Part shown: positions 13,639 through 28,765 of the stretch, one piece after another | Numbering within the stretch: the first letter of the stretch is position 1 | How the letters are laid out: each line of letters starts with the position of its first letter | Source of the DNA: Clostridiales bacterium | GTDB taxonomy: Bacteria > Bacillota > Clostridia > Saccharofermentanales > Saccharofermentanaceae | Length of the DNA stretch: 64,000 nucleotides | Direction of reading: 5' to 3' | Assembly (NCBI GenBank): GCA_017513085.1 | Contig: JAFWDK010000027.1 | Location: forward strand, 160,564 to 224,563 | Made by a program: the position numbers and the translations under genes | The notes under the pieces: model-generated | Databases searched by the model: none | The model's input: the letters and a program-made list of their open reading frames with translations, nothing else | Told to the model about the DNA's origin: nothing

Positions 13639-13765
13639 AGTTTACACCTTCAGAATCACTTGTCGGGGACTTATAAAAATCCACGATAATAATACCAGTA
13701 TTCGGAAGAATTGGAAAGAGAGCCACAAGTGCGCTATAATGTTGCTGAATATTTAGGGGCGGTAA

Positions 13766-15457
13766 ATGGGCATTTTCGAAGAAAAAACATATCAGGTCAA
13801 GTGTAGCGGTCTTTCCAACGAAGGACAGGGTGTCGCGCGTATTGAGAGCGACCGTGAAAAAGATAACGGACTAAAGGTATTTGTGGACGATCTCTTACCC
13901 GGAGAGGTCGCTAAGATCCGTATTACTTCGCGTGAGAAGAACCTGGCTCACGGAGAAAAGATCGAAACCGTATCCGAATCGCCCAACCGTGTTGTGCCTG
14001 TCTGCTCCGAGTTCACCAAGTGTGGTGGATGTCAGATTCAGCATGCCGACTATGCCTGCCAGCTCAAAATGAAGGAAGACATGGTCCGCTCTTGCCTGCA
14101 CCGTATCGGGCATATTTCCCTTTCCGACCTTCACTCGGTCAGCGAGCCCATCTTAGGCGCCCCGGACCAGTTCTTTTACCGCAATAACGTTCAGTATCCG
14201 ATCGAATACAGTCATGCCAAGAAGAGCGTGAATATCGGTCTTTACGAGAAGAAGAGCCACAAGATCGTGGAACATGAGAAGTGTTACCTCGTTCATCCGT
14301 CAGCCGAAGTGATCCGTGGTGTGGCGCAGATCTATTTCAGCGACCACTCCCGTGCCAATATTGCTAAATATCTCCGGCAACTCATTGTTCGTGTGGGTTT
14401 TTTCAGCAAGGAAATGATGGTCGTTCTCGTCTGCACACGTCCTATCAAGCTCGATGCGGAAGAATTCGTCCAGACTTGCGAGAGAGCCATGTCACAGGCA
14501 CAGATCGGTATGCACATCTCCAGTATCTGGACACAGGAAACCAAGGACCGTGCCAAGAAGGGGGCTTCCGATTGTTGGACCAATGTCTGGGGGAAACCCT
14601 ATATTCATGAATTCCTGGAACACCGGGTATTCCGCATCTCGCCGGATGCTTTTTTCCAGGTCAACAGTAAACAGACGATCCATCTGTATTCCAAAGTTAA
14701 AGAATATCTCCGCTACGACGGAGCGCTTCCCCGTCTTCTTGTGGATCTTTACTGTGGCACCGGCAGTATCGGCATCTTCTGCTCCAGTGTCTGCCATCAC
14801 CTGGTCGGTATCGAGTCAGTCGAGTCTGCCGTAATCGATGCGCGCGCCAATGCTACAGCTAATTATCTTGAAAACGCCGAGTTTTTCTGTGGTAAAGCAG
14901 AGGACTACGATTTCGGCGCAATGATGCCGGACGCGGTCGTCATCGATCCTCCTCGCAAAGGCTGCGACGAAAAACTGCTCCGCGAACTACTGCATCTGGC
15001 CCCTACCCGGATCGTTTACGTTTCCTGTAACCCTTCCACATTAGCGCGGGACCTTCACCGTCTCTTCCAGATCCAGGAAGAGGGCGACACACGCTACGGC
15101 ATCAGCCGTATCTGCCCGGTGGATATGTTCCCGAATACGTCTCATGTCGAGACTGTTGTCTTGCTTTCCAAGGAAAACATATCGACAAAACATGTTCGGG
15201 TTGAGTTTAATCTTGAAGAGATGGATATGTCAGGATTCAAGGTCGGTGCTACTTATGAAGAGATAATCGCATGGGTTCAGGAGAAATACGGTTTCCATGT
15301 TACTCATCTTAATATTGCTCAGGTCAAGCGCAAGTGCGGGATCGTTGAAAGAGAGAACTACAATCTTCCAAAATCACCGGACTCAAGACAACCGAATACT
15401 CCTAAGGAAAAAGAGGATGCGATCAAGGATGCGTTCAAGCATTTTAATATGATCTGA
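13766..15457 (+). CDS. rlmD: 23S rRNA (uracil-5)-methyltransferase; the last 101 aa derive from the integrated element
   Basis: TRAM domain, CxxxxxCGGC, AFFQVN, DLYCGTG, DPPRKG, YVSCNP, DMFP..HVE; continues 101 aa past the Glu of HVE. Confidence 0.95.
   Translation: MGIFEEKTYQVKCSGLSNEGQGVARIESDREKDNGLKVFVDDLLPGEVAKIRITSREKNLAHGEKIETVSESPNRVVPVCSEFTKCGGCQIQHADYACQLKMKEDMVRSCLHRIGHISLSDLHSVSEPILGAPDQFFYRNNVQYPIEYSHAKKSVNIGLYEKKSHKIVEHEKCYLVHPSAEVIRGVAQIYFSDHSRANIAKYLRQLIVRVGFFSKEMMVVLVCTRPIKLDAEEFVQTCERAMSQAQIGMHISSIWTQETKDRAKKGASDCWTNVWGKPYIHEFLEHRVFRISPDAFFQVNSKQTIHLYSKVKEYLRYDGALPRLLVDLYCGTGSIGIFCSSVCHHLVGIESVESAVIDARANATANYLENAEFFCGKAEDYDFGAMMPDAVVIDPPRKGCDEKLLRELLHLAPTRIVYVSCNPSTLARDLHRLFQIQEEGDTRYGISRICPVDMFPNTSHVETVVLLSKENISTKHVRVEFNLEEMDMSGFKVGATYEEIIAWVQEKYGFHVTHLNIAQVKRKCGIVERENYNLPKSPDSRQPNTPKEKEDAIKDAFKHFNMI
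15126..15173 (+). other. attL
   Basis: ...CATGTC-GA-GACTGTTGTCTTGCTTTCCAAGG; the P' arm ends in TTCCAAGG, 23 nt from the GA core. Confidence 0.88.
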
Positions 15458-15590
15458 TTGAAGATACTTTAGTTAATCACGCCGTGGGTAGTTGGAGCAA
15501 TCCAATGTCCTGCGGCGGTTTTATTATGCCTGAAGGTATTGTGTCCGATGGTATAATTGAAGCAGATGGATTCAATAGGCAACGGGAGGT

Positions 15591-16172
15591 GTGGCAATGA
15601 ACATAAGAAAAATAACATCTCTGGTACTTGTCTTTGTATTTGTGTTCTCATTTACCGCCTGCAAGAAAACTGATGTCCCCGAGCTGGATAGAATCTTGAA
15701 TTATTCAGTTGAACAGTTTGATGATCTGGCAAGCAGCGTTGATGAGAAGGATTTGATCAAAGCATGGGGTGAACCGCAAGCATTAGGCAGCCGCAGATTC
15801 TGGAGAATCAGTGTTGAGGGCGAGACGACAAAGTTTGTTGTGGCATGGGTTGAGAACGGAAACGTAACATCTATTCACGTTTCCAAGCCTCTGTTTATCA
15901 ATGTTGCAGCTATAGAAAACGGCGTAGCTTACTGCGTATTTGGTTGGAATTACTATTCTACTGATGCAGCTAATCTTGCATTTATGCCAACACAGGACTG
16001 TTTTGGCAATGAGATTGCATGTGAGGTTGGTGATCAATTCATATTCCAATTTGACGGTATGATCATGGAGTCTTATCCGGCACAGATCAACGCTCCATAC
16101 TCGGCTGTTCGGATGGGACACCTGTCTGACGAAGAAATCTCCGAGATGGCAAGTAACATTGTATTACCGTAG
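15591..16172 (+). CDS. Hypothetical lipoprotein (cargo)
   Basis: GGAGG RBS; lipobox FTAC. Confidence 0.8.
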   Translation: MAMNIRKITSLVLVFVFVFSFTACKKTDVPELDRILNYSVEQFDDLASSVDEKDLIKAWGEPQALGSRRFWRISVEGETTKFVVAWVENGNVTSIHVSKPLFINVAAIENGVAYCVFGWNYYSTDAANLAFMPTQDCFGNEIACEVGDQFIFQFDGMIMESYPAQINAPYSAVRMGHLSDEEISEMASNIVLP

Positions 16173-16201
16173 CGATTATCTTTGATCGTTATTTCGACGG
16201 A

Positions 16202-17119
16202 TCAATACACAAGCAGTCCGTTTTCCATTTTGAGTAATCGATCATCTACAAAGACAATTGGTACTATCTCGGAGTCGTTATTTTCTGCACAGTTGAAATC
16301 CACAATATATTTTAAAGCCTGCTCTTCGCCGGGAAATATAATCAATTGATATGGAAAGTTATAATCCAGCTTTTCTAATAACATAACACCTTCGGATTTT
16401 GTATGAATCAGGACAGCCGCGTGACCGCAATGCAAAATGTACTGATCACTATCATCATAAATATCAGATCCGTTAAACCATATAGAAATCAAGCTGATGT
16501 TATTGTTTCCCTGGAAACTAATGCCGGTCTGTCTCCAATACTCATTTATTTGCTCCGCCTGTTCAGACACACTGATGTTTTCGGACGATTCTATACCGTT
16601 GAATAATAATGTGAATTGTCTGATATCTGAATCAGACTGAAAAACGGATGAATCGTTGATTTCAACAAGCATCATCGGCTCTGTCACTTGGGAAGCTGTG
16701 TCGTATGAAATAAGCGAACCCATAGCTTCAAATGCAGTTAATCGGCAGTTTCTTCTGCCGGTTAGATTCCCATATTTACTCTTCCATTTTCTTTCTAGCT
16801 TTGTTGAATCATATGCGGATGCAGCGTTTTCAGTAAAAACCGCAAATCCGCTTTGTACTGGTAAAATATCTCCTGTAGCAGCATTGTACTGAATGATGTT
16901 TTCGAGCAAGGCATCTATATAAGGCTTTTGAACGCCTGCTTCTTCCAAAGCTGTCCTTAGAACATCCTGCGATTCCAGATCAACAAGGTTACTGTATACT
17001 GCATCATACGGAGAACCCTGTGACTCTGTCTTGCTGTTTTGCGTTCCACAGCCTGTAACAAGTAGTATTAAACATAATGTTGTTACGAAGGTTAATACGC
17101 TATTTAATGATTTATTCAC
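16202..17119 (-). CDS. DUF4300-like lipoprotein
   Basis: Lipobox VTGC; YSNLVD, NCRLTAF, GHAAVL, LLEKL..PYQ motifs. Confidence 0.75.
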   Translation of the reverse strand: MNKSLNSVLTFVTTLCLILLVTGCGTQNSKTESQGSPYDAVYSNLVDLESQDVLRTALEEAGVQKPYIDALLENIIQYNAATGDILPVQSGFAVFTENAASAYDSTKLERKWKSKYGNLTGRRNCRLTAFEAMGSLISYDTASQVTEPMMLVEINDSSVFQSDSDIRQFTLLFNGIESSENISVSEQAEQINEYWRQTGISFQGNNNISLISIWFNGSDIYDDSDQYILHCGHAAVLIHTKSEGVMLLEKLDYNFPYQLIIFPGEEQALKYIVDFNCAENNDSEIVPIVFVDDRLLKMENGLLVY

Positions 17120-17137
17120 TCTTTATAATCCTTTCCA

Positions 17138-17953
17138 TCAATTCGGAATATATGTATTAGTTTCCTGATTGAAGAAGGAATAATAATCGAACCCATCAAC
17201 TAAACCTTCAAACTCGGCAAAATCCATAAATCGATAGATTTTGTTATCAGGTGTAACTATAGCTTCCATATCTCCATAATATAAGTATACCAGCTGTTGT
17301 CCAGCATGCTGTTGTAGAAAACTGTTGTACTGGGAATACCATGATCCACCGAAAGCAATGCCATACCAAAGGCCATTCTCATCTTTTGATACGGATATAA
17401 CGGATATAAGATCTTCGTCGTTATAGACTAGAAAATCTCTCCAATTGACAGCTACAGAATTATCATTTGTTCTGTAATGTCCATACCCCGTTTCGCTGAT
17501 GACCATATTCTGAGCATTAACACCAGATGCCTCAAGACTGTTTTTGATGCCTGCATAGTTTTCCATTAGAAATGCATAGGCTTCTTCATTTGTTAACCAA
17601 TAATCTACACCCGTTAAATGAACACAAGCTCTATCCGTGATAATTACGCCTTCTTCTCCGCATCCGTCAGGAACTGTTTCGTTAGTTGATCCATGAGATG
17701 TCTGAAGCGTTTCCTCTGTAGCCGTAGAACTTATAGATTCTGAAATCAAGGTATTCTCAGTTGTGAACGTATCCTTCCTAGGTAATAACTTTATAACCAT
17801 AACTGCAATACCTGCTACTATCAAGACTGATGCAGCGATCCCAATGTATCGAACCCAAGCCGCATTTTTCTTTGCCTTTTGAAATGTCTTCGCTTCCTCA
17901 ATAAATCTATCGTCTATGATTTCGAATGTATCCAATATGAATTCTCTTCTCAT
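17138..17953 (-). CDS. Putative membrane anti-sigma factor
   Basis: IDDRFIEEA N-terminal motif plus one TM; overlaps the ECF sigma stop. Confidence 0.75.
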   Translation of the reverse strand: MRREFILDTFEIIDDRFIEEAKTFQKAKKNAAWVRYIGIAASVLIVAGIAVMVIKLLPRKDTFTTENTLISESISSTATEETLQTSHGSTNETVPDGCGEEGVIITDRACVHLTGVDYWLTNEEAYAFLMENYAGIKNSLEASGVNAQNMVISETGYGHYRTNDNSVAVNWRDFLVYNDEDLISVISVSKDENGLWYGIAFGGSWYSQYNSFLQQHAGQQLVYLYYGDMEAIVTPDNKIYRFMDFAEFEGLVDGFDYYSFFNQETNTYIPN

Positions 17954-18510
17954 AATTCGAACCCCCTTGCTAACAGATAATCGCGGAGTTTGATCCTGAT
18001 GCGACGAATTGATGTGGATATATTATTCTCACTTGTTCCTAGTCTTAAGGCAATTGACTTGATATCATCAGCGTACCAATACCGACGTACTATCATTACT
18101 CTTTTCTCCAACGGGAGATCATAAAGAAAATCGTTAATTGCCTTTGCCAGATCATTGCGGACAACATCATCTTCGGGACTGGGATTATCTGACGCAATTT
18201 CACCGATTTCATCCAGTAGAGCCGGAATCACATTGCCGCCGCGCTTTTCTGCTAAGTTCTTACGATATCGATCCAAGGAAATGTTTCGAACGATGCGTCC
18301 GATAAAAGCAGAGAAGACGGATGGTTTCTGTGGCGGAATGGTATTCCATACCCTGGAATATGTATCATTCACACATTCTTCTGAATCCTCATTGTTATAG
18401 AGGATGTTGTAGGCAATGGAAAAGCAGTAGTTGCCGTACTTTCGCGAAGTCTCAGTAATTGCCGATTCGTCGCGATTCCAATATAAGCGAATTATTGCAT
18501 CATCATTCAT
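17950..18510 (-). CDS. ECF RNA polymerase sigma factor
   Basis: DSEECVNDTY (region 2); RRYWYADDIKSIA (region 4); AAGGAGG RBS. Confidence 0.92.
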   Translation of the reverse strand: MNDDAIIRLYWNRDESAITETSRKYGNYCFSIAYNILYNNEDSEECVNDTYSRVWNTIPPQKPSVFSAFIGRIVRNISLDRYRKNLAEKRGGNVIPALLDEIGEIASDNPSPEDDVVRNDLAKAINDFLYDLPLEKRVMIVRRYWYADDIKSIALRLGTSENNISTSIRRIRIKLRDYLLARGFEL

Positions 18511-18533
18511 CAAGATGACCTCCTTCACTTATA

Positions 18534-18561
18534 TAGACGTATTCCTCACATGAATCTGACA
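18534..18561 (-). promoter_or_regulatory. Probable autoregulated ECF promoter
   Basis: TGTCAG-N16-CGTCTA directly upstream of the ECF RBS. Confidence 0.6.
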
Positions 18562-18581
18562 GTTATTATTCTACCATTTTG

Positions 18582-20306
18582 TCAATCATCAGTTTCATCT
18601 ATCCTTCTAAATACAGCAACTACATCTGGTTCGTAATACAAGGTCTCATAATCATCGTTTAAGTAATCATCAACACTGTACTTGTCGTTTTCCTGTCGAA
18701 GATCTACGACATAATACTCAGTCTTGTTGTCCGTTCGTTCCAGTTCATAAACAACATCGTGATCCGAGAAGTCGGCTACAAAGAAAGCTGTAGCCGTAAC
18801 AGATGCATCTTCAGGCACAAGGGAGACAGCGTAGTTTATCTTTGCACGTTTTTCCGCCGAACGGTTAAAGAAATCTATGTACCCCAGGTGGTCATAATTG
18901 ATGCTTGAACATAATACTATCGTACAGCACGCACCATATAGAAGCAGTTTATCTCGATGTTTTTCTTTAAGGTCGGCATAGTTGAGTACTGCCAGATATA
19001 CGAGAATAGCACATGTACCAAAGCAGTATTGATATCTCATATCATATTGGTAATGGTAATTCGGCATCAGGTTAATCAATATCCATGGGAGCATAAGAAT
19101 AGCTCTTTTAAAATCCTTTGTTATTATTGGCAGGAATCCCATCGGCATCAGAGTCAGGAACATAAACTTCAGTTTATCTGCCACTGAAATCTGACTTATA
19201 ACGTAGACAGGATCTGAGATTGCGGTTGATAGGATCGACAATGTTCCTTCTCCGTCCTGCAAATAATTGTTATAACGATACAACATTACCCCGTCGCCGT
19301 ATGTGGACAGATAGCGCGTGATACCCACGAAGTATGCAATAGATACTATAAAAATGCATAAATTACATTTGTAGTTTTTATGGGTAAATAAAAAGTACAA
19401 AGCAATAACAGCAACATATACGGCCGCATCTTCTTTGACTGCAAGCAATAATATAGAGAAAAGCGCCTGACCATACCATAATTCTTTTTCACAGAAATAT
19501 ATAAGCCACAAAACAAGCGGTGCAAGGAAACAGTTCTCATGAAGATGGTAGAAACAACCACCGACAAATCCCGGAAAGAATAGATATATCAGTGAGAAGA
19601 TGATCATTGAGGCTTTCCCTAACGAGTGCTTTCTCATGATCAACGCCAAGGGTATTATTCCGGACATTACGATCAAACTTTGCATAAGTTCCAGAGTTAT
19701 AGGACTTGGGAAAAGATAATAGAATGGAAGAATAAGATAGTAGATGGGTGACATATGAACAGAGAAATGTGACATTAAAACATCTCTTTCACAAGTCGTA
19801 AATGGTATGCCTGTCTCTTTCATATAATGAAACATTTGAGAAAATATCCCAAAGTCATAACAGGCAGTCCAATGGTTTATATAGATCAGGCAACAGTTCC
19901 CTCCAACCAGTACGACAAAAAGGAGACATAGGAATAGAATAGAACGTCGGAATGTTTTATTCCCTATTCGCGGTCGGATATCCTTGATATCGGTACTCAG
20001 AATAATAATCCCAAGAACTACACACAGTCCTATTGCGAAATACTGTTCACGATTGATTACTGCCGCAGCTGTAAAGTAGAGGGTCGAAAAGACAATCATG
20101 GCAAGTTTGACAACTCTCTGATCTTTCAATCTGTTGATCAGTAACCAGATCGAGAATACTGCAACTATGAAGAGAATGATCGCCAAGTATTTCACTGAGT
20201 GTAAATTGACCAGATCCATTTGTTTATTGGCAAAATATAATACAGAGACGAGAATCCAGCTTAGTGCAAGATTATATGCTTTGTTAGAATCTAGTTTAGC
20301 GAACAT
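18582..20306 (-). CDS. DUF2079 family polytopic membrane protein (probable GT-C glycosyltransferase)
   Basis: YDFGIFSQ, SHFSVHMSPI, YHLHEN, VKED, YQY motifs; many TM segments. Confidence 0.8.
   Translation of the reverse strand: MFAKLDSNKAYNLALSWILVSVLYFANKQMDLVNLHSVKYLAIILFIVAVFSIWLLINRLKDQRVVKLAMIVFSTLYFTAAAVINREQYFAIGLCVVLGIIILSTDIKDIRPRIGNKTFRRSILFLCLLFVVLVGGNCCLIYINHWTACYDFGIFSQMFHYMKETGIPFTTCERDVLMSHFSVHMSPIYYLILPFYYLFPSPITLELMQSLIVMSGIIPLALIMRKHSLGKASMIIFSLIYLFFPGFVGGCFYHLHENCFLAPLVLWLIYFCEKELWYGQALFSILLLAVKEDAAVYVAVIALYFLFTHKNYKCNLCIFIVSIAYFVGITRYLSTYGDGVMLYRYNNYLQDGEGTLSILSTAISDPVYVISQISVADKLKFMFLTLMPMGFLPIITKDFKRAILMLPWILINLMPNYHYQYDMRYQYCFGTCAILVYLAVLNYADLKEKHRDKLLLYGACCTIVLCSSINYDHLGYIDFFNRSAEKRAKINYAVSLVPEDASVTATAFFVADFSDHDVVYELERTDNKTEYYVVDLRQENDKYSVDDYLNDDYETLYYEPDVVAVFRRIDETDD
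19364..19373. promoter_or_regulatory. Intragenic BlaI-type operator
   Basis: TACATTTGTA inside a 21-bp exact copy of the operator upstream of the repressor gene. Confidence 0.55.
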
Positions 20307-20332
20307 GACAAGAAGAATCCTTTCAAGAATCT

Positions 20333-20346
20333 ACTACAAATGTAGT
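20333..20346. promoter_or_regulatory. BlaI/MecI/CopY-type operator upstream of DUF2079
   Basis: ACTACA-AA-TGTAGT palindrome. Confidence 0.8.
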
Positions 20347-20364
20347 TTATTGGGGTAAAAAAAT

Positions 20365-21579
20365 TTATTCGCTTGGATAAGCGGTCATAGAGGTTGTTGT
20401 TTCTGTAATAGCAGTGGTAGTCGTTGGGATTGTTTCATCGCCGAAATACTGCACATACGAAGTTTCTTCCACTTCCATGTTGTCAATATCCATATAATAC
20501 GTCGTGACTTCAGTCATATCTTCTTCACCTATCCAATATGTTGTCTCCGCACTAGATTCGGGAGTGTTCATGATGGTCGTAGTTACAGACGGGTAGGAGT
20601 CATTGTATGAAGAATCCTGAGAAGAGATATCTTTAGATGCAATAGCAAATCCCGATATGCACGTAAGAAGAATAATCGCAATCAATGTACCTATAAATAG
20701 TCTACGAGATCCTGATAGGATCAATTGAAGTCTGTGCTTAAGGCTTTGTTTAGGAGAATAAAAGTTGGTCGTTATAGCTGGTGTGGGGCTAACTGAAAAC
20801 GTAGATCTGGTTGCTGAGACTGTATTAAGGATCGACTCACAATATACTTTTCGCATTTGTGCATCCTCATCAGAGGTGACGGCCATATCACAATAATATT
20901 CGCATTCCTGTTCGAGTTTCCTGCTTATCACTATCATCAAGGGATTGAACCAGTGCATGGTGCGACATACCGTGATGAAAAGCTTAATCCAAAGGTCATG
21001 ATGTTTATAATGTGTAAGCTCGTGCTTAATGATTAATCTCAGTTCGTTATAACCATAACTTCTGCAGGGGATAAGGATTATCGGATTGATAAGCCCGGTC
21101 ATCATTGGTGACGAGATGCATTCGGATGTATACACCTCTATTGGTCTTTTTATCTTGAGTGCTTTAGATACTTCACTTGTCAATTCCTGTATATCAGAAG
21201 GCGCCGATTTTGCAAATCGCATAACTGTTTTATTCCATGCAGTACTACGTATAATGTAGAAAAGAATAAATGATACCGCTCCGATAAGATAAATGGCAGT
21301 TACAACAGACATAGGATTAATCAGTGATGTCGTACTAGTATGGACTGTATTTGTAGCAACAACAGGATTTGCTGGTGCTGTATTCTCTAAAGTAACCAAT
21401 GCACTTCCCCAATGGGGTCTGATTGGAATGAGAAATCCGATAATAACGACAAGCCAAGAATAGTATCTGATCGATGGAGACTGTTTATTGCTAAGAACGC
21501 GTGAGACTATCAGATAGATTACTGCGACTATGGACATGTTCATTGAGCAAATGAGAATATTAAGCATTGCACACCTCAC
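20365..21579 (-). CDS. M56 family (BlaR1-like) metallopeptidase signal transducer
   Basis: HELTH zinc motif, HWFNP, ECEYYCD; Thr/Ser-rich C-terminal tail in place of a penicillin-binding domain. Confidence 0.9.
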   Translation of the reverse strand: MRCAMLNILICSMNMSIVAVIYLIVSRVLSNKQSPSIRYYSWLVVIIGFLIPIRPHWGSALVTLENTAPANPVVATNTVHTSTTSLINPMSVVTAIYLIGAVSFILFYIIRSTAWNKTVMRFAKSAPSDIQELTSEVSKALKIKRPIEVYTSECISSPMMTGLINPIILIPCRSYGYNELRLIIKHELTHYKHHDLWIKLFITVCRTMHWFNPLMIVISRKLEQECEYYCDMAVTSDEDAQMRKVYCESILNTVSATRSTFSVSPTPAITTNFYSPKQSLKHRLQLILSGSRRLFIGTLIAIILLTCISGFAIASKDISSQDSSYNDSYPSVTTTIMNTPESSAETTYWIGEEDMTEVTTYYMDIDNMEVEETSYVQYFGDETIPTTTTAITETTTSMTAYPSE

Positions 21580-21947
21580 ATATCATTAAGCCAGTTCTTG
21601 AGTTCACTAATATCTTCGTCAGATATCTCGCCATCACTATATAAGGCCTTCACAAAACCTGACATCTTATTTGCACCGAATCTACTTTTCAGTGATTCTG
21701 CCTCAATGTTCATATATTGTGACTCGCTGATAACAGCATAATATCCACGCTCTTTGCCATTCTTTTCGGAATGCAGAAAGCCTTTCTTTTCCAACCTGAC
21801 AAGCATAGTCATGACGGTTTGCTGTTTCCAATCACGATCATGAAGATCCCTGCTTAAGATTACCGTGAGGGCTGGAGAAGTTACAGGCTGCTCGATATGC
21901 CAAATAGCCTTCATTATTTCAAATTCTGCATCCGGTAGTTTTTTCAT
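21576..21947 (-). CDS. BlaI/MecI/CopY family repressor
   Basis: LPDAEFEIMKAIW, W..QTVMTMLVRLEKKG; overlaps the M56 start. Confidence 0.93.
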   Translation of the reverse strand: MKKLPDAEFEIMKAIWHIEQPVTSPALTVILSRDLHDRDWKQQTVMTMLVRLEKKGFLHSEKNGKERGYYAVISESQYMNIEAESLKSRFGANKMSGFVKALYSDGEISDEDISELKNWLNDM

Positions 21948-21970
21948 TGCACGAATAATCTTTCATAAAT

Positions 21971-21980
21971 TACATTTGTA
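21971..21980. promoter_or_regulatory. Autoregulatory BlaI-type operator
   Basis: TACATTTGTA about 24 nt upstream of the repressor start. Confidence 0.8.
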
Positions 21981-22076
21981 GTTTATCTAATGATAAGTCA
22001 ATAATTCCGTGTTGTCAATTTGAAATATGAGAAAACGGCAGTCATCGATAAACAAGACTATATCCCTTAGGTTACT

Positions 22077-22120
22077 AAGGGCGCACTTCTATACATACCC
22101 TACGGGATGTATCAGTGCGC
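22077..22120. other. oriT (MOBQ-type nic region)
   Basis: AAGGGCGCACTT is the reverse complement of the AAGTGCGCCCT nic consensus; nested inverted repeats GCGCACT/AGTGCGC and ATACAT/ATGTAT. Confidence 0.8.
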
Positions 22121-22220
22121 TCTCCGAGGGCAGGTAATGCAACTTCGCTTCAGATGCATTAATCTTCGTCACGTTCGTTCCGGACAAGAGGCTCAGCCTC
22201 TTGCGCCACTATGGTGGCTA

Positions 22221-23582
22221 TCACCAATCCCGCCACTTCAGGCGGTCGTATTCATGGAACCTTATATGAGGATATTGAGCCGCATACCGCTCACAGTAAT
22301 CAGCGGGTCTGCATCTGACATAGATGTTGATGATCGACTCATATAACGGGGCAAACTTCTTCGCGGCATATTCGATCTTTTCAAGATCGTTCCGATCAAA
22401 GCGTCGATCCGTATCTCGGACTATTTTGACGAAAAGCATTTTGCCATCGTATGGAATTACGCTTTCAAAGTGATAAACAAAACCTTTCTCGATAACATCA
22501 GATGGTCTTATGCTGCAAAGCGGATTCCCCGTATACAAGTCATCCAGCCCGAAATCAATGTTCAGTGCGTGAAGGTGACATGCCTTTTCGTATTCCTGTT
22601 CAGATAATCTTGTAACCGCTTTAATGTAGTCATCGGTAATTTCCGGAAATTGCTGAGGTCGAGCCAATCGCATTTTTTCTTTGATCAGGAAGGAATAGTA
22701 TAGCTCCATATATATGTTTCGGAAGTAATAGCATTTCCCGGAATGTTTAAGTATCCGAACATCAACAAGGGAGCGAAGATACTTCTCACATTTATTATAT
22801 GCATATCCTGTTACGGAACCGATCTCGCTTATACGAGTATTATCCTCTGCAATGACAGTAAGTAGTTCATTATATATCTCCGGTTTGCGGAAATAATGAT
22901 CCATCAGATGCGGCATATAATTCATCAACGGCGAATCAATGCGGGTCAGGTTCCAAGCCGCATCTTTGAAATTTTCATATTCAGAAAAAAGCCGGACAAG
23001 TTCCGGTATTCCTCCGGTTGCCGTGCTTACCAGGAGAGAATTCTGCGCATCCATCTTCGGAAGCATCTTATGAACGTCGGAAAGTGCCAGATGATTCACA
23101 GTGCAAGGGAATATGTTTTTGCCCATCCCCGTGGGAAGCCGTTCTCCGACAAGACAGATAAAAATGTTATTGCGATCCGGATCGAACCTAAACTTTTCGA
23201 AAGCATCGATAAACCCAATATAATCTTCTGTTTTCTGGATATCGTCAAGGATAAAGATCTTATAATGCCAGCCTGACAGATGCTTCATCGTTTCAAAGAT
23301 ATCACTCCAATTATCACTTGCCGCTTTGATGCCGGTGTACCTTTCAACACGCTCGGCTAACAGCTTCTGTGCGCAATTCTCCGACTGACCTTTAAATGAA
23401 AAATAGCACAGATCGGCTCGGTTCTCATAAGCCTTTAAAACAAGAGATGTCTTGCCGCAGTGAGGCTCTCCCAAAACGGCAAGTATCTCCCGCGGTTCAC
23501 CCCAACCGTTCTTGTCATGGAGGTTTTCCTTGAACAGCCCTTTTAACTCATTAACGTAAATCGTTCTCGGCGCGAATAACAT
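22221..23582 (-). CDS. P-loop ATPase (archaeal-ATPase/DUF234-like) with a winged helix
   Basis: Walker A GEPHCGKT, Walker B IFILDD, TGGIP motif. Confidence 0.75.
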   Translation of the reverse strand: MLFAPRTIYVNELKGLFKENLHDKNGWGEPREILAVLGEPHCGKTSLVLKAYENRADLCYFSFKGQSENCAQKLLAERVERYTGIKAASDNWSDIFETMKHLSGWHYKIFILDDIQKTEDYIGFIDAFEKFRFDPDRNNIFICLVGERLPTGMGKNIFPCTVNHLALSDVHKMLPKMDAQNSLLVSTATGGIPELVRLFSEYENFKDAAWNLTRIDSPLMNYMPHLMDHYFRKPEIYNELLTVIAEDNTRISEIGSVTGYAYNKCEKYLRSLVDVRILKHSGKCYYFRNIYMELYYSFLIKEKMRLARPQQFPEITDDYIKAVTRLSEQEYEKACHLHALNIDFGLDDLYTGNPLCSIRPSDVIEKGFVYHFESVIPYDGKMLFVKIVRDTDRRFDRNDLEKIEYAAKKFAPLYESIINIYVRCRPADYCERYAAQYPHIRFHEYDRLKWRDW

Positions 23583-23845
23583 ATTTCACCTTCTCAGTAA
23601 ATAATCAACTTATAAGTTGATAAAAGTGCTTTCATTATACATCAAACGGCATTTTGATTCATTGTTGACAATTTTCGTTCTGAACAAAATGCCCATAAAA
23701 TAAGGCTCTTTAAAAAGTTTACAAAATAATTTCGATCATTTGTCTACCAACTGCCCGGAAAACCACTAACAAAAAGTAGAAGCACCTGAAAGGGCAAGAA
23801 TGTCTTTTTCGAAGGTTTCAATAATCAAATTTGCAGGAGGTAAGA

Positions 23846-24172
23846 ATGAAAAAACAAACAGTCGAAGACATCAGGAAGGAGATCATATCCACAGAAAAGG
23901 ACAAGGTGATCATCGTACATCAGATCAAAAGGCTGGAGAACCGGGCAAACTATTACACCAAAGCTGAGAAGCGAAAAAGAACGCATCACCTGTGTAATAT
24001 CGGCGGTGCAATCGAGGCTCTTTTCCCTATTTCGAAGACACTTTCAAAGACAGAATTCTTCGAATTTATGGAGAAGATTTCAGCATTGCCGGATGTTGTT
24101 TCCTTGGTAAAAGAGACAGAGAACAGAATTATGATAAACACCGCTGACGATCACGGGAAGGATGTGGTCTGA
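23846..24172 (+). CDS. DUF3847-like mobilization accessory protein
   Basis: Coiled coil plus RKRTHHLCNIGGAIE; coupled to the relaxase by TGATG. Confidence 0.75.
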   Translation: MKKQTVEDIRKEIISTEKDKVIIVHQIKRLENRANYYTKAEKRKRTHHLCNIGGAIEALFPISKTLSKTEFFEFMEKISALPDVVSLVKETENRIMINTADDHGKDVV

Positions 24173-25611
24173 TGGCGCTCTATCATTTTTCCGTAACACA
24201 GGTTAAGCGAAGTGCAGGACAAAGCGCGATTGCCTGCGCATCGTATCGTGCAGGGGAACGTCTTTACAGTCAATATTACGATGAGGTCAGTGATTACTCC
24301 AAGAAAGGGGGCGTGATCTATAGTGAGATCATGCTTCCAGAGAATGCACCTAAGGAATATGCGGATCGGGAAACACTCTGGAACGCTGTCGAAGATGTGG
24401 AGAAACACCCCAAGGCACAGCTGGCATATAGCTTTGATATTGCTCTTCAGAACGAATTATCCCAAGAAGAAAATATCGATCTGGCTAGAAGATTTGTGAA
24501 GGAATATCTTGTGGCAGATGGTATGATCGCTGATCTTGCCGTTCACAATCCTGAACGTGACGGGAACCCCAATCCTCATATTCATATCCTTACAACGATG
24601 CGGCCTCTTAATCCTGACGGAAGCTGGGGATCTAAGCAGCATCGTGAATATCTTTTTGATGATCAGGGGAATCCCGTAAAGGATGAGAAAGGTAATCAGA
24701 AATATAAAGCGGTACCGAATACCGATTGGGGAACACCCGAGAAACTTCAGCAATGGCGCGAGGATTGGGCAAACCTCGTTAATTCCAAATTCGAAGAGAA
24801 AGGTCTTCCCTGTCGAATAGACCACAGATCTTATGAGAATCAGGGCATTCATGAACTTCCGACAGTTCACGAAGGTCCGACTGTCCGTGCGATGGAACTG
24901 AAAGGCATTCCAACGGAAAAGGGCGAGTATAACCGATGGATACGAAAGACAAATGCGATGATCAGGGGTCTTCTCTCTAAGATTAAAGAAATGGTCGCCG
25001 CTATCAAAGACATGCGCGAAGAAATCAAGAGAATCGAGGAAGAACCTTCTCTCGCAGATCTGTTGATGGCAGGTCGAACCCCAGCAAAATCATCGTTACA
25101 GGATCTGAAATTCCTCTCGGCGGATATTCTCTTCCTTCAGAAACATTCTATCTATCGAATCGATGATCTTGAGAACTATCTTGAAAAGATGGAGTCTCTT
25201 AAGCAGTCGCAGAAAGATCGTCTGGATAAATGCAATGCCCGGAGAAAAGAAGTGAAAGAACTTATCTCCTTGCTTGATATCTATCACGAGACCAAGCCGA
25301 TCTACGAAGAAGGCATGAAGAAATTCTTCGGCAAAGAGAAGTATATGCAAGAAAACGAAGGCAGGATCAAACAATATCAGATGGCAAAGAGAAAACTCGC
25401 CAAAGCATCAAAGTCTCGCGGCGGAAAACTCACAAAGAAAATGCTCGAAAAGGAACTTGCAGCATTGGATTCGGAGTATTCCGCTATCCGCGATGAATTC
25501 GTCAAGAGTCGAGACGAAGTCCAAACGGTAAGCAGGATCCAGTATTCGATACAGCGCGGGCTCGAAGCAAAACATCCTCATAAAACCAGAGCTACAGATC
25601 TATCACTTTAA
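24172..25611 (+). CDS. MobA/MobL (MOBQ) relaxase
   Basis: MALYHFS, SAIACASYRAGE, NPHIHIL, RIDHRSY. Confidence 0.95.
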   Translation: MALYHFSVTQVKRSAGQSAIACASYRAGERLYSQYYDEVSDYSKKGGVIYSEIMLPENAPKEYADRETLWNAVEDVEKHPKAQLAYSFDIALQNELSQEENIDLARRFVKEYLVADGMIADLAVHNPERDGNPNPHIHILTTMRPLNPDGSWGSKQHREYLFDDQGNPVKDEKGNQKYKAVPNTDWGTPEKLQQWREDWANLVNSKFEEKGLPCRIDHRSYENQGIHELPTVHEGPTVRAMELKGIPTEKGEYNRWIRKTNAMIRGLLSKIKEMVAAIKDMREEIKRIEEEPSLADLLMAGRTPAKSSLQDLKFLSADILFLQKHSIYRIDDLENYLEKMESLKQSQKDRLDKCNARRKEVKELISLLDIYHETKPIYEEGMKKFFGKEKYMQENEGRIKQYQMAKRKLAKASKSRGGKLTKKMLEKELAALDSEYSAIRDEFVKSRDEVQTVSRIQYSIQRGLEAKHPHKTRATDLSL

Positions 25612-25633
25612 AAATACGGAGGTATATAAATAT

Positions 25634-25888
25634 ATGAAAAAGTATTATAACAATCCCAAATATGATGCGGCATTTGATCGTTGCGTCAATATATTGGCAA
25701 CCCTTATGGTGAAGTACGGCCCGAGAGTGCTTCTGAAGCAGGCCGTTGAAAGAATACTTGGTAAGGGACGCCTGAGTATCTACAATCCTGAAAGTCCTAA
25801 GATCAAGAAAGAACGTCTTATCGCGTATCAGAAAGAGTACGGCAAGATCAGTTCTTCCGCTAAGGATGTAAAAGATAAAGCCGCATAA
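25634..25888 (+). CDS. Small element-encoded protein
   Basis: GGAGG RBS; lies between the relaxase and recombinase modules. Confidence 0.7.
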   Translation: MKKYYNNPKYDAAFDRCVNILATLMVKYGPRVLLKQAVERILGKGRLSIYNPESPKIKKERLIAYQKEYGKISSSAKDVKDKAA

Positions 25889-25907
25889 GACACAAATCTA
25901 CAATTTG

Positions 25908-25952
25908 TGCGTTGCACATGATATGATTATTAGTTATTATTAGTGCAACGCA
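25908..25952 (+). promoter_or_regulatory. SigA promoter bracketed by a 10-bp inverted repeat
   Basis: TTGCAC-N17-TATTAT; TGCGTTGCAC (25908-25917) / GTGCAACGCA (25943-25952). Confidence 0.7.
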
Positions 25953-25966
25953 TAGATAAGGAGATT

Positions 25967-26179
25967 ATGATCATGGACTGCAAGACAAAGATAAAAGAAC
26001 TTCGTGAGATGACAGGAATGAACAGAACGGAGTTTTGTGAGTACTTCCAGATTCCATACGGAACAGTTACCGATTGGGAACGTGATTACCGTCATGCACC
26101 GGAATATGTTCTCCGCCTTCTGGAATACTACATCCGTATGGAGAATCTCATAAAAGACAATAAGGACGAAACGAAGTAA
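25967..26179 (+). CDS. XRE-family HTH regulator
   Basis: IKELREMTGMNRTEFCEYFQIPYGTVTDWE; AAGGAG RBS. Confidence 0.88.
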   Translation: MIMDCKTKIKELREMTGMNRTEFCEYFQIPYGTVTDWERDYRHAPEYVLRLLEYYIRMENLIKDNKDETK

Positions 26180-26218
26180 CCGCATCGAATTACATACGGT
26201 TAGAAAGGAAAAGATAAT

Positions 26219-27079
26219 ATGGCTAACAAACCCATTAAAGATACTATTCATGCTAAAGGATTTGATATCGGTATATATACCACCGATTACGAGAATGAAT
26301 TTATATCATTGACGGATATCGCAAGATATAAGAGCGATATGCCTCATGATGTGGTCAAAAACTGGATGAGGAGCCGAGAAACAATAGAGTTTCTTGGAAT
26401 CTGGGAGAGTCTGCACAATCCGAATTTTAAACAGGTCGAATTCGACCTGTTTAGAAAGGAAGCAGGATTGAACGCATTCACAATGTCACCTACAAAGTGG
26501 ATCGAAAGTACAAATGCTATCGGCATCGTTACAAAAGCCGGACGTTATGGCGGAACTTATGCGCATTCCGATATTGCACTCGAGTTTGCATCTTGGGTAT
26601 CTGCCGAATTCAAACTTTATATCATGAAGGACTATCAGAGACTAAGGCGTGATGAAAGTAGCAGGCTGTCTCTTGCATGGAACCTTCACCGCGAGATTGC
26701 CAAGCTTAATTACCGTGTTCATACCGATGCGATCAAGGATAATCTGATTCCACCGGAACTGACATCAACGCAGATCTCATATAAGTATGCAAGTGAAGCA
26801 GATATGCTTAATGTCGCACTTTTCGGTAAGACTGCTAAAGAATGGCGGGATGAGAATCCTGATAAAAACGGCAATATGAGAGATTATGCTACTCTGAATC
26901 AACTCCTTGTTCTGGCTAACATGGAAAGCTATAACGCAATTCTTATTGAACAAGGAAAGCGGATGTCAGAACGTCTTGTTCTCATTAGAAAGCAAGCTAT
27001 TAAACAACTTCAGACACTTGATCTGGTAAGTCTGGACAATCTGCCCAAGCTCCCGGGAGGAGATAATAATGAAGAATAA
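26219..27079 (+). CDS. KilA-N domain DNA-binding protein
   Basis: FISLTDIA, WMRSRETIEFLG, GRYGGTYAHSDIALEFASW. Confidence 0.9.
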   Translation: MANKPIKDTIHAKGFDIGIYTTDYENEFISLTDIARYKSDMPHDVVKNWMRSRETIEFLGIWESLHNPNFKQVEFDLFRKEAGLNAFTMSPTKWIESTNAIGIVTKAGRYGGTYAHSDIALEFASWVSAEFKLYIMKDYQRLRRDESSRLSLAWNLHREIAKLNYRVHTDAIKDNLIPPELTSTQISYKYASEADMLNVALFGKTAKEWRDENPDKNGNMRDYATLNQLLVLANMESYNAILIEQGKRMSERLVLIRKQAIKQLQTLDLVSLDNLPKLPGGDNNEE

Positions 27080-28757
27080 TAAAAAGAAATGTTATATCTA
27101 TACCCGTGTCTCCACGATGATGCAAGTCGATGGATTCAGCCTTGATGCCCAGAAAGATAAACTCCGCAAGTATGCTGATTATCAAGATTGGGAGGTCGCT
27201 GCTGAGTATTCCGACGAAGGATGCTCCGGTAAGAATATCCAAGGCAGACCTGAGTTCTCGCGCATGATGTCAGATATTGAGGATTGCAAAGATGGAGTCA
27301 GTTATGTTCTCGTCTTTAAGCTTTCACGTTTCGGTCGTAATGCCGCAGATGTTCTGAATTCCTTGCAGATCATGCAGGATTTCGGGGTGAATCTCATCTG
27401 TGTGGAAGATGGTATCGACAGTTCCAAGGATGCAGGTAAGCTCATGATATCCGTCCTTTCCGCTGTTGCTGAGATTGAGAGGGAGAATATCCGTACTCAG
27501 ACCATGGCAGGACGTGAGCAGAAAGCTCGCGAAGGCAAATGGAACGGAGGCTTTGCTCCTTATGGTTATAAGCTTGAAAATGGAGAACTCCTTATTGCCG
27601 ATGATGAAGTTGAGATCATCAATATCATATTTGATCGCTATATACATACGAAGGACGGGATTAACGGCGTAGCAAGCTACCTGAATTCGCATGGCTATAC
27701 AAAGAAGTTACGTCAGAATAATACTATTCCGGGGTTTTCCTCTTCATTTGTTAAGGCAGTAATAGATAATCCGATATATATGGGGAAGATAGCATACGGG
27801 CGTCGAAAGACAGAAAAGAAGATCGGTACCCGTAATGAAATGCACGTTGTGGAGCAATCTGTATTCCCTGTTTATGAAGGTGCACATGAGGCGATAATCT
27901 CTGAAGTGGACTGGAATCTTGCGCAGGAGAAGAGAAAACTTAATGCTTACAAACGCCAGAAGGTTCATGATATCGATCACGCACATATACTTTCGGGAAT
28001 CCTTAAGTGTCCTTGTTGTGGGAAGAGTCTATACGGAAATATCGCCAAGGCACACAGCAAGGATAACAAGACGCGATTCTACTACTATTGCAAGAACACC
28101 TTAGGGGCGACCGGACATCGTTGCACATTTAGACATAATATAGAACAGACAGAGATCAACCAGATGGTTGCATCTATAATATCTGCAATGGTTACAAGAC
28201 CGGACTTCAAGGAAGCGATCACCGAAAAGATAGGATCCGCTGTTGATACCAAGGATATGGAAAAACAGAAGGAAGCCTTGCAGGATAAACTCAGGCAGAC
28301 TCTGGGAACCAAATCCAAGCTTGAGCATCAGATGGACAGTCTAGATGTCCTTGATCCGCACTATGACAGGAAGATGCTGGATCTTCAAAGAAGATATGAT
28401 CAGCAGTACGACATCCTTGCCGATATAGAGAATCAAATCGAGGACCTGAAAGAACAGATTCGTCATATTCAACATGAAAATATAACCGGTAATAATATCT
28501 ATCAGTTGCTTCTAACTTTCGATGAATTGTATGATGAATTCAACGAAGCAGAGAAAAAGGATTTCATGAGATCATTCGTAGAGCGTATCGACATATATCC
28601 CGAAAAGCCTGAAAACGGCTGCTGGATAAAGAATATCGTGTTTAACTTCCCCATTCCGATGAATGGGGAAGACATCACGGAATTGCCCTTGGAATCTCAA
28701 AAGACCGCTGAGACGGTAGTTCTTCTGTCCAAACTATCCAGCACAGCCAGGCTGTAA
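27069..28757 (+). CDS. Large serine recombinase; the last 14 aa are the displaced native rlmD tail
   Basis: YTRVST catalytic Ser, LSRFGRN, APYGY, zinc ribbon CPCCG...YYYC...C, coiled coil; reads through attR. Confidence 0.96.
   Translation: MKNNKKKCYIYTRVSTMMQVDGFSLDAQKDKLRKYADYQDWEVAAEYSDEGCSGKNIQGRPEFSRMMSDIEDCKDGVSYVLVFKLSRFGRNAADVLNSLQIMQDFGVNLICVEDGIDSSKDAGKLMISVLSAVAEIERENIRTQTMAGREQKAREGKWNGGFAPYGYKLENGELLIADDEVEIINIIFDRYIHTKDGINGVASYLNSHGYTKKLRQNNTIPGFSSSFVKAVIDNPIYMGKIAYGRRKTEKKIGTRNEMHVVEQSVFPVYEGAHEAIISEVDWNLAQEKRKLNAYKRQKVHDIDHAHILSGILKCPCCGKSLYGNIAKAHSKDNKTRFYYYCKNTLGATGHRCTFRHNIEQTEINQMVASIISAMVTRPDFKEAITEKIGSAVDTKDMEKQKEALQDKLRQTLGTKSKLEHQMDSLDVLDPHYDRKMLDLQRRYDQQYDILADIENQIEDLKEQIRHIQHENITGNNIYQLLLTFDELYDEFNEAEKKDFMRSFVERIDIYPEKPENGCWIKNIVFNFPIPMNGEDITELPLESQKTAETVVLLSKLSSTARL
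28687..28734 (+). other. attR
   Basis: CCTTGGAATCTCAAAAGACCGCT-GA-GACGGTAGTT...; the P arm starts 23 nt from the GA core. Confidence 0.88.
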
Positions 28758-28765
28758 ATACGTAT

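Follow-up and report, generated by a model that had tools for sequence, protein, structure and literature searches.

We analyzed a 64,000-nucleotide stretch of DNA (here, the window) from a Clostridiales bacterium (GCA_017513085.1, contig JAFWDK010000027.1, positions 160,564 to 224,563 of the forward strand), in which an integrative mobilizable element (IME) interrupts the U5-methyltransferase gene rlmD. The left part of the interrupted gene reads on into the element as an open reading frame (ORF) of 563 aa at 13766..15457, on the forward strand like every other gene, gene segment, and junction whose window coordinates are given below. The final 101 residues of this ORF (15152-15454, with the stop codon at 15455-15457) are encoded by the element, and at the opposite end of the element the gene of a large serine recombinase (LSR) reads out into the displaced 3' end of rlmD. 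The 101-aa tail is foreign to RlmD, and the RlmD of the source genome is a chimera. Our best explanation is that the tail is natively the tethered C-terminal domain of the LSR and that the fusion of RlmD to the tail (RlmD::tail) is the reciprocal product of integration.

The host part of rlmD comprises 462 codons (13766..15151), which encode a TRAM domain (residues 7-65) and the U5-methyltransferase domain according to TIGR00479 and Pfam and which end in the H-V-E motif. TIGR00479 scores 326.4 bits against the 563-aa ORF (cut-off, 183.55) over residues 16-462. Since this profile is matched from end to end (positions 1-432 of 432), including the C-terminal H-V-E strand, the protein is a full-length member of the RlmD family; the Pfam PF05958 match extends to residue 469. 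A GA dinucleotide is present at both junctions, and the one at the left attachment site (attL, 15149..15150) forms the first two bases of the Glu codon of H-V-E. The host thus contributes HV, the GA is of host or shared origin, and the element supplies the closing G and the TVVLLSK codons. The sequences GTC GAG ACT GTT at attL and GCT GAG ACG GTA at the right attachment site (attR) have an identical frame around the GA. These details agree with an earlier note on this DNA, made from the sequence before any database search, which had reported the 101-aa swapped tail, the restoration of the ETVVLLSK strand, and RlmD lengths of 476 and 563 aa. The original host protein had 476 aa, made up of the 462 residues and 14 codons that now lie at 28713-28754 (TVVLLSKLSSTARL). 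We take the H-V-E Glu to be the catalytic base, and a deposited RlmCD variant in which Gln replaces this Glu is consistent with that role. The alignment of the window RlmD to the solved chains of pneumococcal RlmCD and Escherichia coli RumA extends to their final residues, which lie 9-11 residues past the aligned Glu, after ETV(A/V)LLSK.

Public records annotate the tail as part of RlmD, as would be expected if it were a native C-terminal extension of this lineage's RlmD and no swap had taken place. However, the empty rlmD genes of three genomes of the same genus end in HVETVVLLSRGK, HVETVALLEKH, and HVETVVLLSRLTGGV, with the stop codon 9-14 residues past the Glu. Carriage of the tail is also patchy: within the genus, 6 of the 23 other genomes have it, and within the family, 45 of 142 genomes and 29 of the 84 of high quality do. 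In addition, GC content falls across the element (0.38-0.46 between 15 and 29 kb versus about 0.50 outside). The displaced rlmD end on the LSR gene, 13.5 kb downstream, the short RlmD proteins of the genus, and the identical element found in a different flank in other samples already refute a native extension, for which we see next to no chance.

The element spans 13,561 bp (13.56 kb; 15151..28711), delimited by GC content, Pfam content, and identical copies elsewhere, and its exact ends can shift by the 2-bp GA. Contigs in two gut metagenome runs (X7 and X8), which come from separate studies, carry 15146-26266 and 26426-28712 with zero differing letters and then continue into foreign flank, and the depth of these runs is nil over 13700-14220 and only about 0.4 over the next 0.5 kb. 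Because this identity starts at 15146 and stops at 28712 within foreign flank, the element ends are fixed at the GA, and the identical copies in a different flank point to very recent transfer or transposition of the whole 13.56-kb element. With a GA at both junctions and 14 rlmD codons displaced, the insertion is of the kind described for rumA/rlmD elements, 11-14 codons before the stop.

The LSR ORF (27069-28757; 562 aa) contains the resolvase catalytic domain (PF00239, residues 9-158, E 8.1e-39), the Recombinase domain (PF07508, residues 179-290), and the zinc ribbon Zn_ribbon_recom (PF13408, residues 307-368), which together identify a large serine recombinase. The element itself encodes 547 codons of this protein (27069..28709) and supplies no stop. 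Junction comparison places the attR crossover GA at 28710..28711, and translation shows that the original rlmD 3' end (28712..28757; the G of the Glu codon, the 14 codons, and the stop) now serves as the recombinase C terminus. The window LSR accordingly terminates in ...AETVVLLSKLSSTARL, and its last 14 codons are the displaced end of rlmD. Seven further right ends have a likewise in-frame fusion of the LSR to rlmD 3' codons. Thirteen of 14 LSR C termini are in frame through an E-T/V-x-x-L-L motif, after which eight stop within a few host-like residues and five carry the full tail; one minus-strand fragment is ambiguous.

The attachment (att) sites show where the exchange falls. The P' and B' arms are identical at 18 of 30 positions and the P and B arms at 5 of 30, and a dyad in attP (CCTTGGAA/TTCCAAGG) lies about 15-22 bp either side of the crossover, which assigns the first 7-9 tail codons to the att site. 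Since the LSR gene and rlmD share a frame through the GA, the tail becomes the LSR C terminus in the excised form or in a tandem array. We consider it very probable that integration swaps the 3' ends of rlmD and the LSR gene, which is the genetic and structural part of our explanation.

Proteins in which the LSR and the tail are naturally joined (LSR::tail) are abundant. With the 94 residues after TVVLLSK as the query against 1.84 billion representatives, phmmer returned 1735 proteins at E<=1e-3, which puts the tail far beyond chance, and 893 of them at E<=1e-10. The sequence upstream of the tail could be classified for 149 of the best 150 representatives as RlmD (19), an LSR C terminus (14), unrelated sequence (91), or fewer than 25 residues (25), and all listed upstream examples carry the junction motif x-E-T-V-V-L-L-S-K or a near variant. 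A search among longer proteins gave 3443 matches at E<=1e-3, and the best 120 comprise 86 RlmD-type proteins, 14 LSR-type proteins, 6 HsdM-type fragments, and 14 without a Pfam family. The LSR-type matches include full-length proteins of 651-666 aa, named "recombinase family protein" by NCBI. When the C-terminal half of one LSR::tail protein was the query, mostly 650-652-aa LSR::tail proteins were returned, and some of the 90%-identity clusters have up to 1106 members. Among 90 collected proteins with alignments of more than 400 residues to the window LSR, the 640-669-aa length bins account for 85. Both results are biased toward tail-bearing forms because the query included the tail. As the earlier note expected, the tail is mis-annotated as a methyltransferase domain, and fusions and fragments bear the names RlmD, "23S rRNA methyltransferase," or "SAM-dependent methyltransferase."

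The same two contexts recur on chromosomes. Among 84 tails in 80 loci of species-representative genomes, the tail continues the frame of rlmD in 55 cases and that of an LSR in 6, comes after other sequences in 12, and has a short upstream frame in 11. A blastx search found no out-of-frame recombinase upstream of the 23 tails in the last two groups, of which three had rlmD pieces in the same or another frame. Four genomes, G001 (locus L064), G002 (L024), G003 (L043), and G065 (L110), have tandem arrays of two elements at rlmD, which account for their chromosomal LSR::tail genes; the upstream fusion ORFs of G001 and G002 were assigned to rlmD fusions by size only. Each array reads tail, element A, LSR_A::tail_B, element B, LSR_B, such that the inner LSR bears its neighbor's tail in frame. 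In one of the arrays, element A carries phosphate-transport and two-component genes and element B carries McrBC and AbiU2 defense genes.

The swap itself has been published, and the window element is a further case of the described exchange. As far as the cited text goes, Srinivasan et al. 2014 (PMC4120198) describe vanG and ICE-r elements (ICE, integrative and conjugative element) in streptococci, enterococci, and Roseburia that target rumA at a GA. Their serine recombinase gene, of 547-549 codons, spans the right end and has no stop. At the left end, the elements have homologous segments of 101 or 115 codons that lack a start and continue the rumA reading frame, a similarity termed "of unknown significance." The part of Ambroset et al. 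2016 (PMC4701971) used here states the reciprocal 3' exchange for streptococcal ICEs and IMEs, with attR inside the integrase gene, and proposes two functionally different integrase forms by analogy with phage Mx8. In its sections on these elements, an IME review (PMC5704250) lists rumA IMEs and gives no recombination directionality factor (RDF) as known for IMEs with a serine integrase. The window element shares with the elements as portrayed in these three sources the target about 11-14 codons from the rumA 3' end, the GA at both junctions, a right-end recombinase that lacks its own stop and is fused to the last codons of rumA, and a startless left segment of about 101 codons that is in frame with rumA and homologous between elements. 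The window tail was matched to the published streptococcal segments by description; it is 54.7% identical to that of a Streptococcus suis record, and streptococcal "phage" records show the same rlmD-tail fusion. In contrast to the published elements, the one in the window resides in a different gut Bacillota lineage, and unlike the ICEs it is a small MobA/MobL IME with BlaR1/BlaI-like, ECF-type sigma factor, and DUF2079 cargo. Our literature search, which did not extend to subscription journals and supplements, found no paper that gives the left-end segment a fold or function. What we add is the division of the tail into att arm, linker, and core, an analysis of the selection on it, the size of its family, and the tandem arrays with their in-frame LSR::tail genes.

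To describe the tail, we compared 77 full-length copies, for which all selection figures (dN/dS, the ratio of nonsynonymous to synonymous rates) are medians. Arm identity and the dyad mark codons 1-7 (TVVLLSK; 15152..15172) as the P' arm, a copy of the 3' end of rlmD through which the methyltransferase regains its final strand. Here, T1, V2, L5, S6, and K7 are conserved in 76-77 of the 77 copies. Codons 8-29 (15173..15238) form a flexible linker, recognizable by its predicted local distance difference test (pLDDT) values and a near-neutral dN/dS of 0.71, with in-frame ATG codons at 24 and 26 in the window. Codons 30-101 and the stop (15239..15457) make up a conserved three-helix core, as judged from the AlphaFold2 (AF2) model and dN/dS. 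The core is under purifying selection (dN/dS, about 0.13), with a proportion of nonsynonymous differences (pN) of 0.20 and saturated synonymous sites (proportion of synonymous differences [pS], 0.77). Residues invariant in all 77 copies of the core include A33, V50, I55, K59, G63, I64, E66, N71, and K87.

These values bear on whether the tail has any function of its own or is a mere read-through that ends the restored rlmD frame and is conserved only as att-site DNA. It is true that the P' arm extends over the first 7-9 codons and that synonymous divergence is lower in codons 1-7 (pS 0.57) than in the core; stop codons moreover occur in 5 of the 77 copies. The core, however, lies 90-300 bp past the crossover, beyond any 40-50-bp serine-integrase site, and its selection figures, its invariant residues, and a confident predicted fold bring the read-through account close to refutation, leaving it a very slight chance.

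The AF2 model of the tail alone, from 27 aligned sequences, has a mean pLDDT of 67.8, with residues 1-29 below 50 and helices at 35-46, 52-61, and 85-97. Block-mean pLDDT values are 82-91 over helices 1 and 2 and about 86 over helix 3, and a near-invariant loop, E-R-x-N-Y-N-x-P-K, lies within a 23-residue conserved stretch between helices 2 and 3. The AF2 model of P0310, an LSR::tail protein of 651 aa that occurs in nature, shows the same fold: its LSR body has the expected structure, pLDDT values are below 50 for residues 547-581, and three helices occupy 585-647 with block means of 75-85. These models place the crossover in a flexible stretch that links the integrase to an independently folding domain of about 70 residues. 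P0310 is 53% identical to the window LSR and has long helices at 400-428 and 437-487, from which the window LSR probably has its coiled coil by alignment. The earlier note described the whole tail as folded and not low in complexity and proposed structure prediction and dN/dS as checks. Both bear this out for residues 30-101, whereas residues 1-29 are an att arm and a disordered linker.

What the core resembles is less distinct. Pfam and NCBIfam have no family for the tail at E<=0.01, Foldseek found no match in PDB or BFVD at E<=0.001, and the best hit of a profile search against PDB sequences, at E 0.08, was a 20-residue stretch of bacteriocin BacSp222, which was taken as chance. In ESM Atlas, the matches were confined to the tail's own family clusters, auto-named "23S rRNA methyltransferase." In PHROGs, the core weakly matches phrog_27283 (69 positions, E 4.9e-4), an uncharacterized phage family of standalone proteins. 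Structural comparison by VIA with LacI-type headpieces gave Z scores of 5.1, 5.0, 4.1, and 4.0 over 45-46 residues, with CelR and CcpA at 5.0-5.1. The three helices superpose over about 45-47 residues (root-mean-square deviation, 2.0-2.6 A) on CelR, CcpA, LacI, FruR, and CytR of the LacI/GalR headpiece type, and the last helix is similar (K-E-K-E-x-A-I-x-D-A-x-x-H-F). In contrast to this likeness, Z ranges only from 2.7 to 5.1, there is no sequence-family match, and the 23-residue conserved loop of the tail has no headpiece counterpart.

The core is mildly basic (isoelectric point [pI], 8.78), and N54, Q57, K59, R60, and K61 are conserved on helix 2. G47 and L53 are placed as the turn of a helix-turn-helix (HTH) requires, from which we infer an HTH pattern in the core, and an HTH-like DNA-binding role is plausible on the predicted model. 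The nucleic-acid-binding, HTH-like domain proposed in the earlier note is thus weakly suggested by the CelR and CcpA scores, the pI, and Gly47/Leu53, and the Foldseek, Pfam, and PDB-sequence searches contribute no match in its favor. A predicted complex of LSR residues 160-547 with the tail scored 0.00 (mark, 0.32); controls were not folded, and this result is evidence neither way.

A core that acts on its own might arise from a start inside the ORF, at codon 21, 24, or 26, which would yield a free protein of about 76-81 aa. This product would serve in trans, for example as an excisionase (Xis)- or RDF-like factor or a regulator, and the fusions would be incidental. An in-frame ATG at one of these codons is found in 76 of the 77 copies, and the Met shifts between subfamilies rather than being lost. 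The 69-position match of phrog_27283 covers the core alone, an 83-aa ORF of such a type is annotated on Enterococcus plasmids, and a free core would serve any insertion site in any frame. The initiation signals speak less clearly. A ribosome-binding site before the conserved ATG is not enriched overall (median duplex energy, -3.7 versus -3.5 kcal/mol in controls), and duplex energies of -8 kcal/mol or lower precede the ATG in 17 of 76 copies versus 5.8% of control windows. The Met may also have a structural role, as it alternates with Leu at hydrophobic positions, and two subfamilies represent few independent events. In 72 of the 77 copies, no stop interrupts the frame between the junction and the end of the weakly constrained linker. 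We give the free protein a small chance.

The earlier note instead placed the function in RlmD::tail, made from the rlmD promoter only while the element is integrated and acting as an occupancy signal, a trans-acting directionality factor, or an exclusion factor. This is the commonest context of the tail, both at the 55 genome loci and among the 86 longer matches counted above, and the in-frame fusion through a flexible linker leaves the domain free. Directionality factors of serine integrases are small, diverse proteins, which also suits such a role. Nevertheless, the same ORF is equally the in-frame 3' end of the LSR gene in the attP form and in arrays, and LSR::tail proteins of about 650 aa are abundant, such that expression is not specific to the integrated state. 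Elements that stack in tandem at already occupied rlmD sites in the four genomes argue against exclusion, and the tail is conserved at non-rlmD junctions, as in the 91 of 149 representatives with unrelated upstream sequence. A role as part of RlmD::tail accordingly has a slim chance.

We return to the tail as a native LSR domain, an explanation to which we assign, as a whole, a probability of about 0.6. According to this scheme, the LSR inserted the 13.56-kb element at the Glu codon of the rlmD HVE motif. The attP core lies inside the LSR gene, in the disordered linker between the LSR body and the C-terminal three-helix domain, and its position within the gene means that recombination exchanges 3' ends. 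RlmD keeps its last strand and gains the linker and domain, and the LSR loses the domain and ends in the 14 last codons of RlmD. The internal members of tandem arrays encode the LSR, the tether, and the domain, as would the excised circle, with a predicted junction of ...AETVVLLSKENIST... in the LSR frame, whereas the last integrated copy encodes a truncated LSR. The core may be an HTH-like, probably DNA-binding or LSR-regulating module that acts near the att site or on the LSR. The attached state (circle and internal array copies) and the detached state (last integrated copy) would then be two integrase forms that differ in activity or direction. The functional part of this scheme is tentative. 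In its most specific version, a switch operated by recombination, the core would set direction or activity, integration would park it on RlmD, excision or a tandem neighbor would reattach it, and the core would be shuffled among elements at the rlmD site. We regard this version as unlikely, with a modest chance of being correct.

Several observations weigh against this explanation. The function of the core is reached by inference, from neither experiment nor computation, and the best Z of 5.4 in a wide VIA search is weak, as values below 8 may reflect a common arrangement only according to the tool's own note. The ATG conserved just before the core fits separate translation, and the weak match of the core to a phage family of standalone proteins is hard to reconcile with a role purely in cis. 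Joints of attP or attB are not listed in the four sequencing runs compared over 13700-29300, which are represented as contigs from which rare forms drop out, and according to the cited text of PMC4120198, its authors were unable to detect their elements in circular form. LSR body and tail core covary with Spearman coefficients of 0.40 for 15 cognate pairs and 0.56 for 780 fused pairs, in which the pairs are nonindependent; such loose covariation is expected if excision from arrays shuffles tails between elements. Finally, on plasmid pAPRE01 of Anaerococcus prevotii (L003 2209-4267), a 606-aa LSR of another clade ends 60 nt past a GAGAC core, and the tail ORF (THVETVALLSK...) overlaps the LSR gene in a different frame. 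This overlap indicates that the cis fusion of LSR and tail is not universal, and it could reflect a decayed site, a sequencing frameshift, or a nonfused arrangement.

Known recombinases offer partial parallels. As summarized in PMC4701971, Myxococcus phage Mx8 has attP in intP, and integration replaces a 112-residue C terminus by 13 residues. Mx8 and the window element therefore share an att site inside their own integrase gene and excised and integrated forms that differ in the C terminus, and the integrated form of Mx8 is reported to be less active. Unlike the LSR, Mx8 Int is a tyrosine recombinase, and the quoted account contains no conserved domain handed to a host protein. By this analogy, our best guess is that the core takes part in an integration-state switch between two integrase forms like IntP and IntX of Mx8. 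Engineered fusions of serine integrases to RDFs switch the preferred direction of recombination, as stated in the part of Olorunniji et al. 2017 (PMC5737554) drawn on here. They likewise place a small domain on a flexible C-terminal linker whose length and sequence matter little, but they are synthetic and use known RDFs, whereas the window tail is known from its sequence and predicted fold alone.

TnpX and TndX, of the Tn4451/Tn5397 type, are large serine recombinases with a GA crossover dinucleotide. Like the window LSR, they belong to mobilizable or conjugative elements, and the many tail junctions at secondary sites are a further likeness; the window LSR differs in having a primary site in rlmD. 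In the relevant section of PMC5704250, TnpX and TndX are said to catalyze both integration and excision without an RDF.

The remaining genes identify the element as an IME. A MobA/MobL relaxase (PF03389, E 9.2e-85) is encoded at 24172..25611, and the 12 element ORFs scanned, all of at least 150 aa, gave no match to VirB4, VirD4, or other type IV secretion system families; the presence of an integrase and a relaxase of its own and the absence of secretion and coupling-protein matches in these ORFs define the class. Pfam also recognizes DUF4300, an ECF-type sigma factor, DUF2079, a BlaR1/BlaI-like pair, and an AAA ATPase among the cargo. Around the gene of the DUF2079 membrane protein and those of the BlaR1-like and BlaI-like pair lie three copies (19358-19375, 20333-20350, and 21965-21982) of a palindrome-like motif of 18 nt (ATAAATTACATTTGTAGT and its complement; complementarity, 94%). 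These copies resemble BlaI/MecI-type operators (TACA/TGTA), and their placement suggests BlaI-like control of the DUF2079 gene. A KilA-N protein (PF04383; 26219..27079) is encoded directly before the recombinase, whose start its gene overlaps, and is a conserved partner of the LSR. A KilA-N or ORF6N gene lies directly 5' of the LSR gene, often overlapping its start, in 8 of 11 elements (including L023, L091, L092, L101, L110, L064, and L024), which makes its product a candidate accessory or directionality factor. A 15-nt repeat common to the tail and the KilA-N gene (GATGCGATCAAGGAT) was dropped, as we estimate that about 0.1 such match is expected by chance.

The tail family extends beyond rlmD and intact recombinases. 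The source genome itself contains a second, diverged LSR C terminus::tail (L002, G000:C1:71732-73660; minus strand, 1498-1929; VETCVLLGLK..., 43-52% identity). Contig C1 ends within this recombinase gene, the remainder of which is missing from the assembly, and another KilA-N-like gene follows the fusion. Two loci (L084 16863-18659 and L009 2-1240) have longer host rlmD 3' ends on their recombinases (...LRSAKDHIEITIDAEDYYRIKD...) that resemble the tail linker and are either a native linker-like RlmD extension or relics of older insertions. Tails with the same junction motif occur on type I restriction-modification or relaxase-like fragments (P0077, P0160, P0175-P0177, P0192, P0010, P0056, and P0144). 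Such non-rlmD joins involve HsdM-type PF02384 sequences, an HsdR-like N terminus, and relaxase-like fragments ending in ...TTHVE, and they apparently represent secondary insertions at sites similar to the H-V-E target. Ninety-seven plasmid records have a tail match, 90 of them from Enterococcus. One Enterococcus faecium plasmid (L004 3959-4210) carries a diverged 83-aa tail remnant (...SVLLSHK...ITYRLIQEYIEEKYGFKV...) without the NYN loop, next to an IS3 transposase within an ant(6)-spw-lsa(E)-lnu(B) resistance cluster. One apparent match, P0023 (2612 aa, 18 matching stretches), is a repeat protein with VVWVEDxYGNHVT repeats, and its summed match is spurious.

Serine-integrase elements that target rumA/rlmD are very common in gut and streptococcal Bacillota, and in the source family 45 of 142 genomes carry the tail. 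In pathogens they bear resistance genes, as in the vanG elements and in the Streptococcus suis record, which has mef(A). The att site of these elements divides their own integrase gene, and the detachable domain of about 70 aa constitutes a large family that has no curated assignment and is routinely annotated as a methyltransferase. If the core tunes direction or activity, it would explain how excision is controlled without a known directionality factor and would offer a small, naturally evolved template for recombinases whose behavior depends on state. In the switch version, the form of its integrase would tell the element whether it is integrated, which would make the LSR the natural equivalent of the engineered integrase-RDF fusions. 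If the core does neither, the outcome is a correct reannotation, in which the RlmD of the source genome is a chimera, and the more modest interest of a widespread domain that a serine integrase sheds and regains with each recombination.

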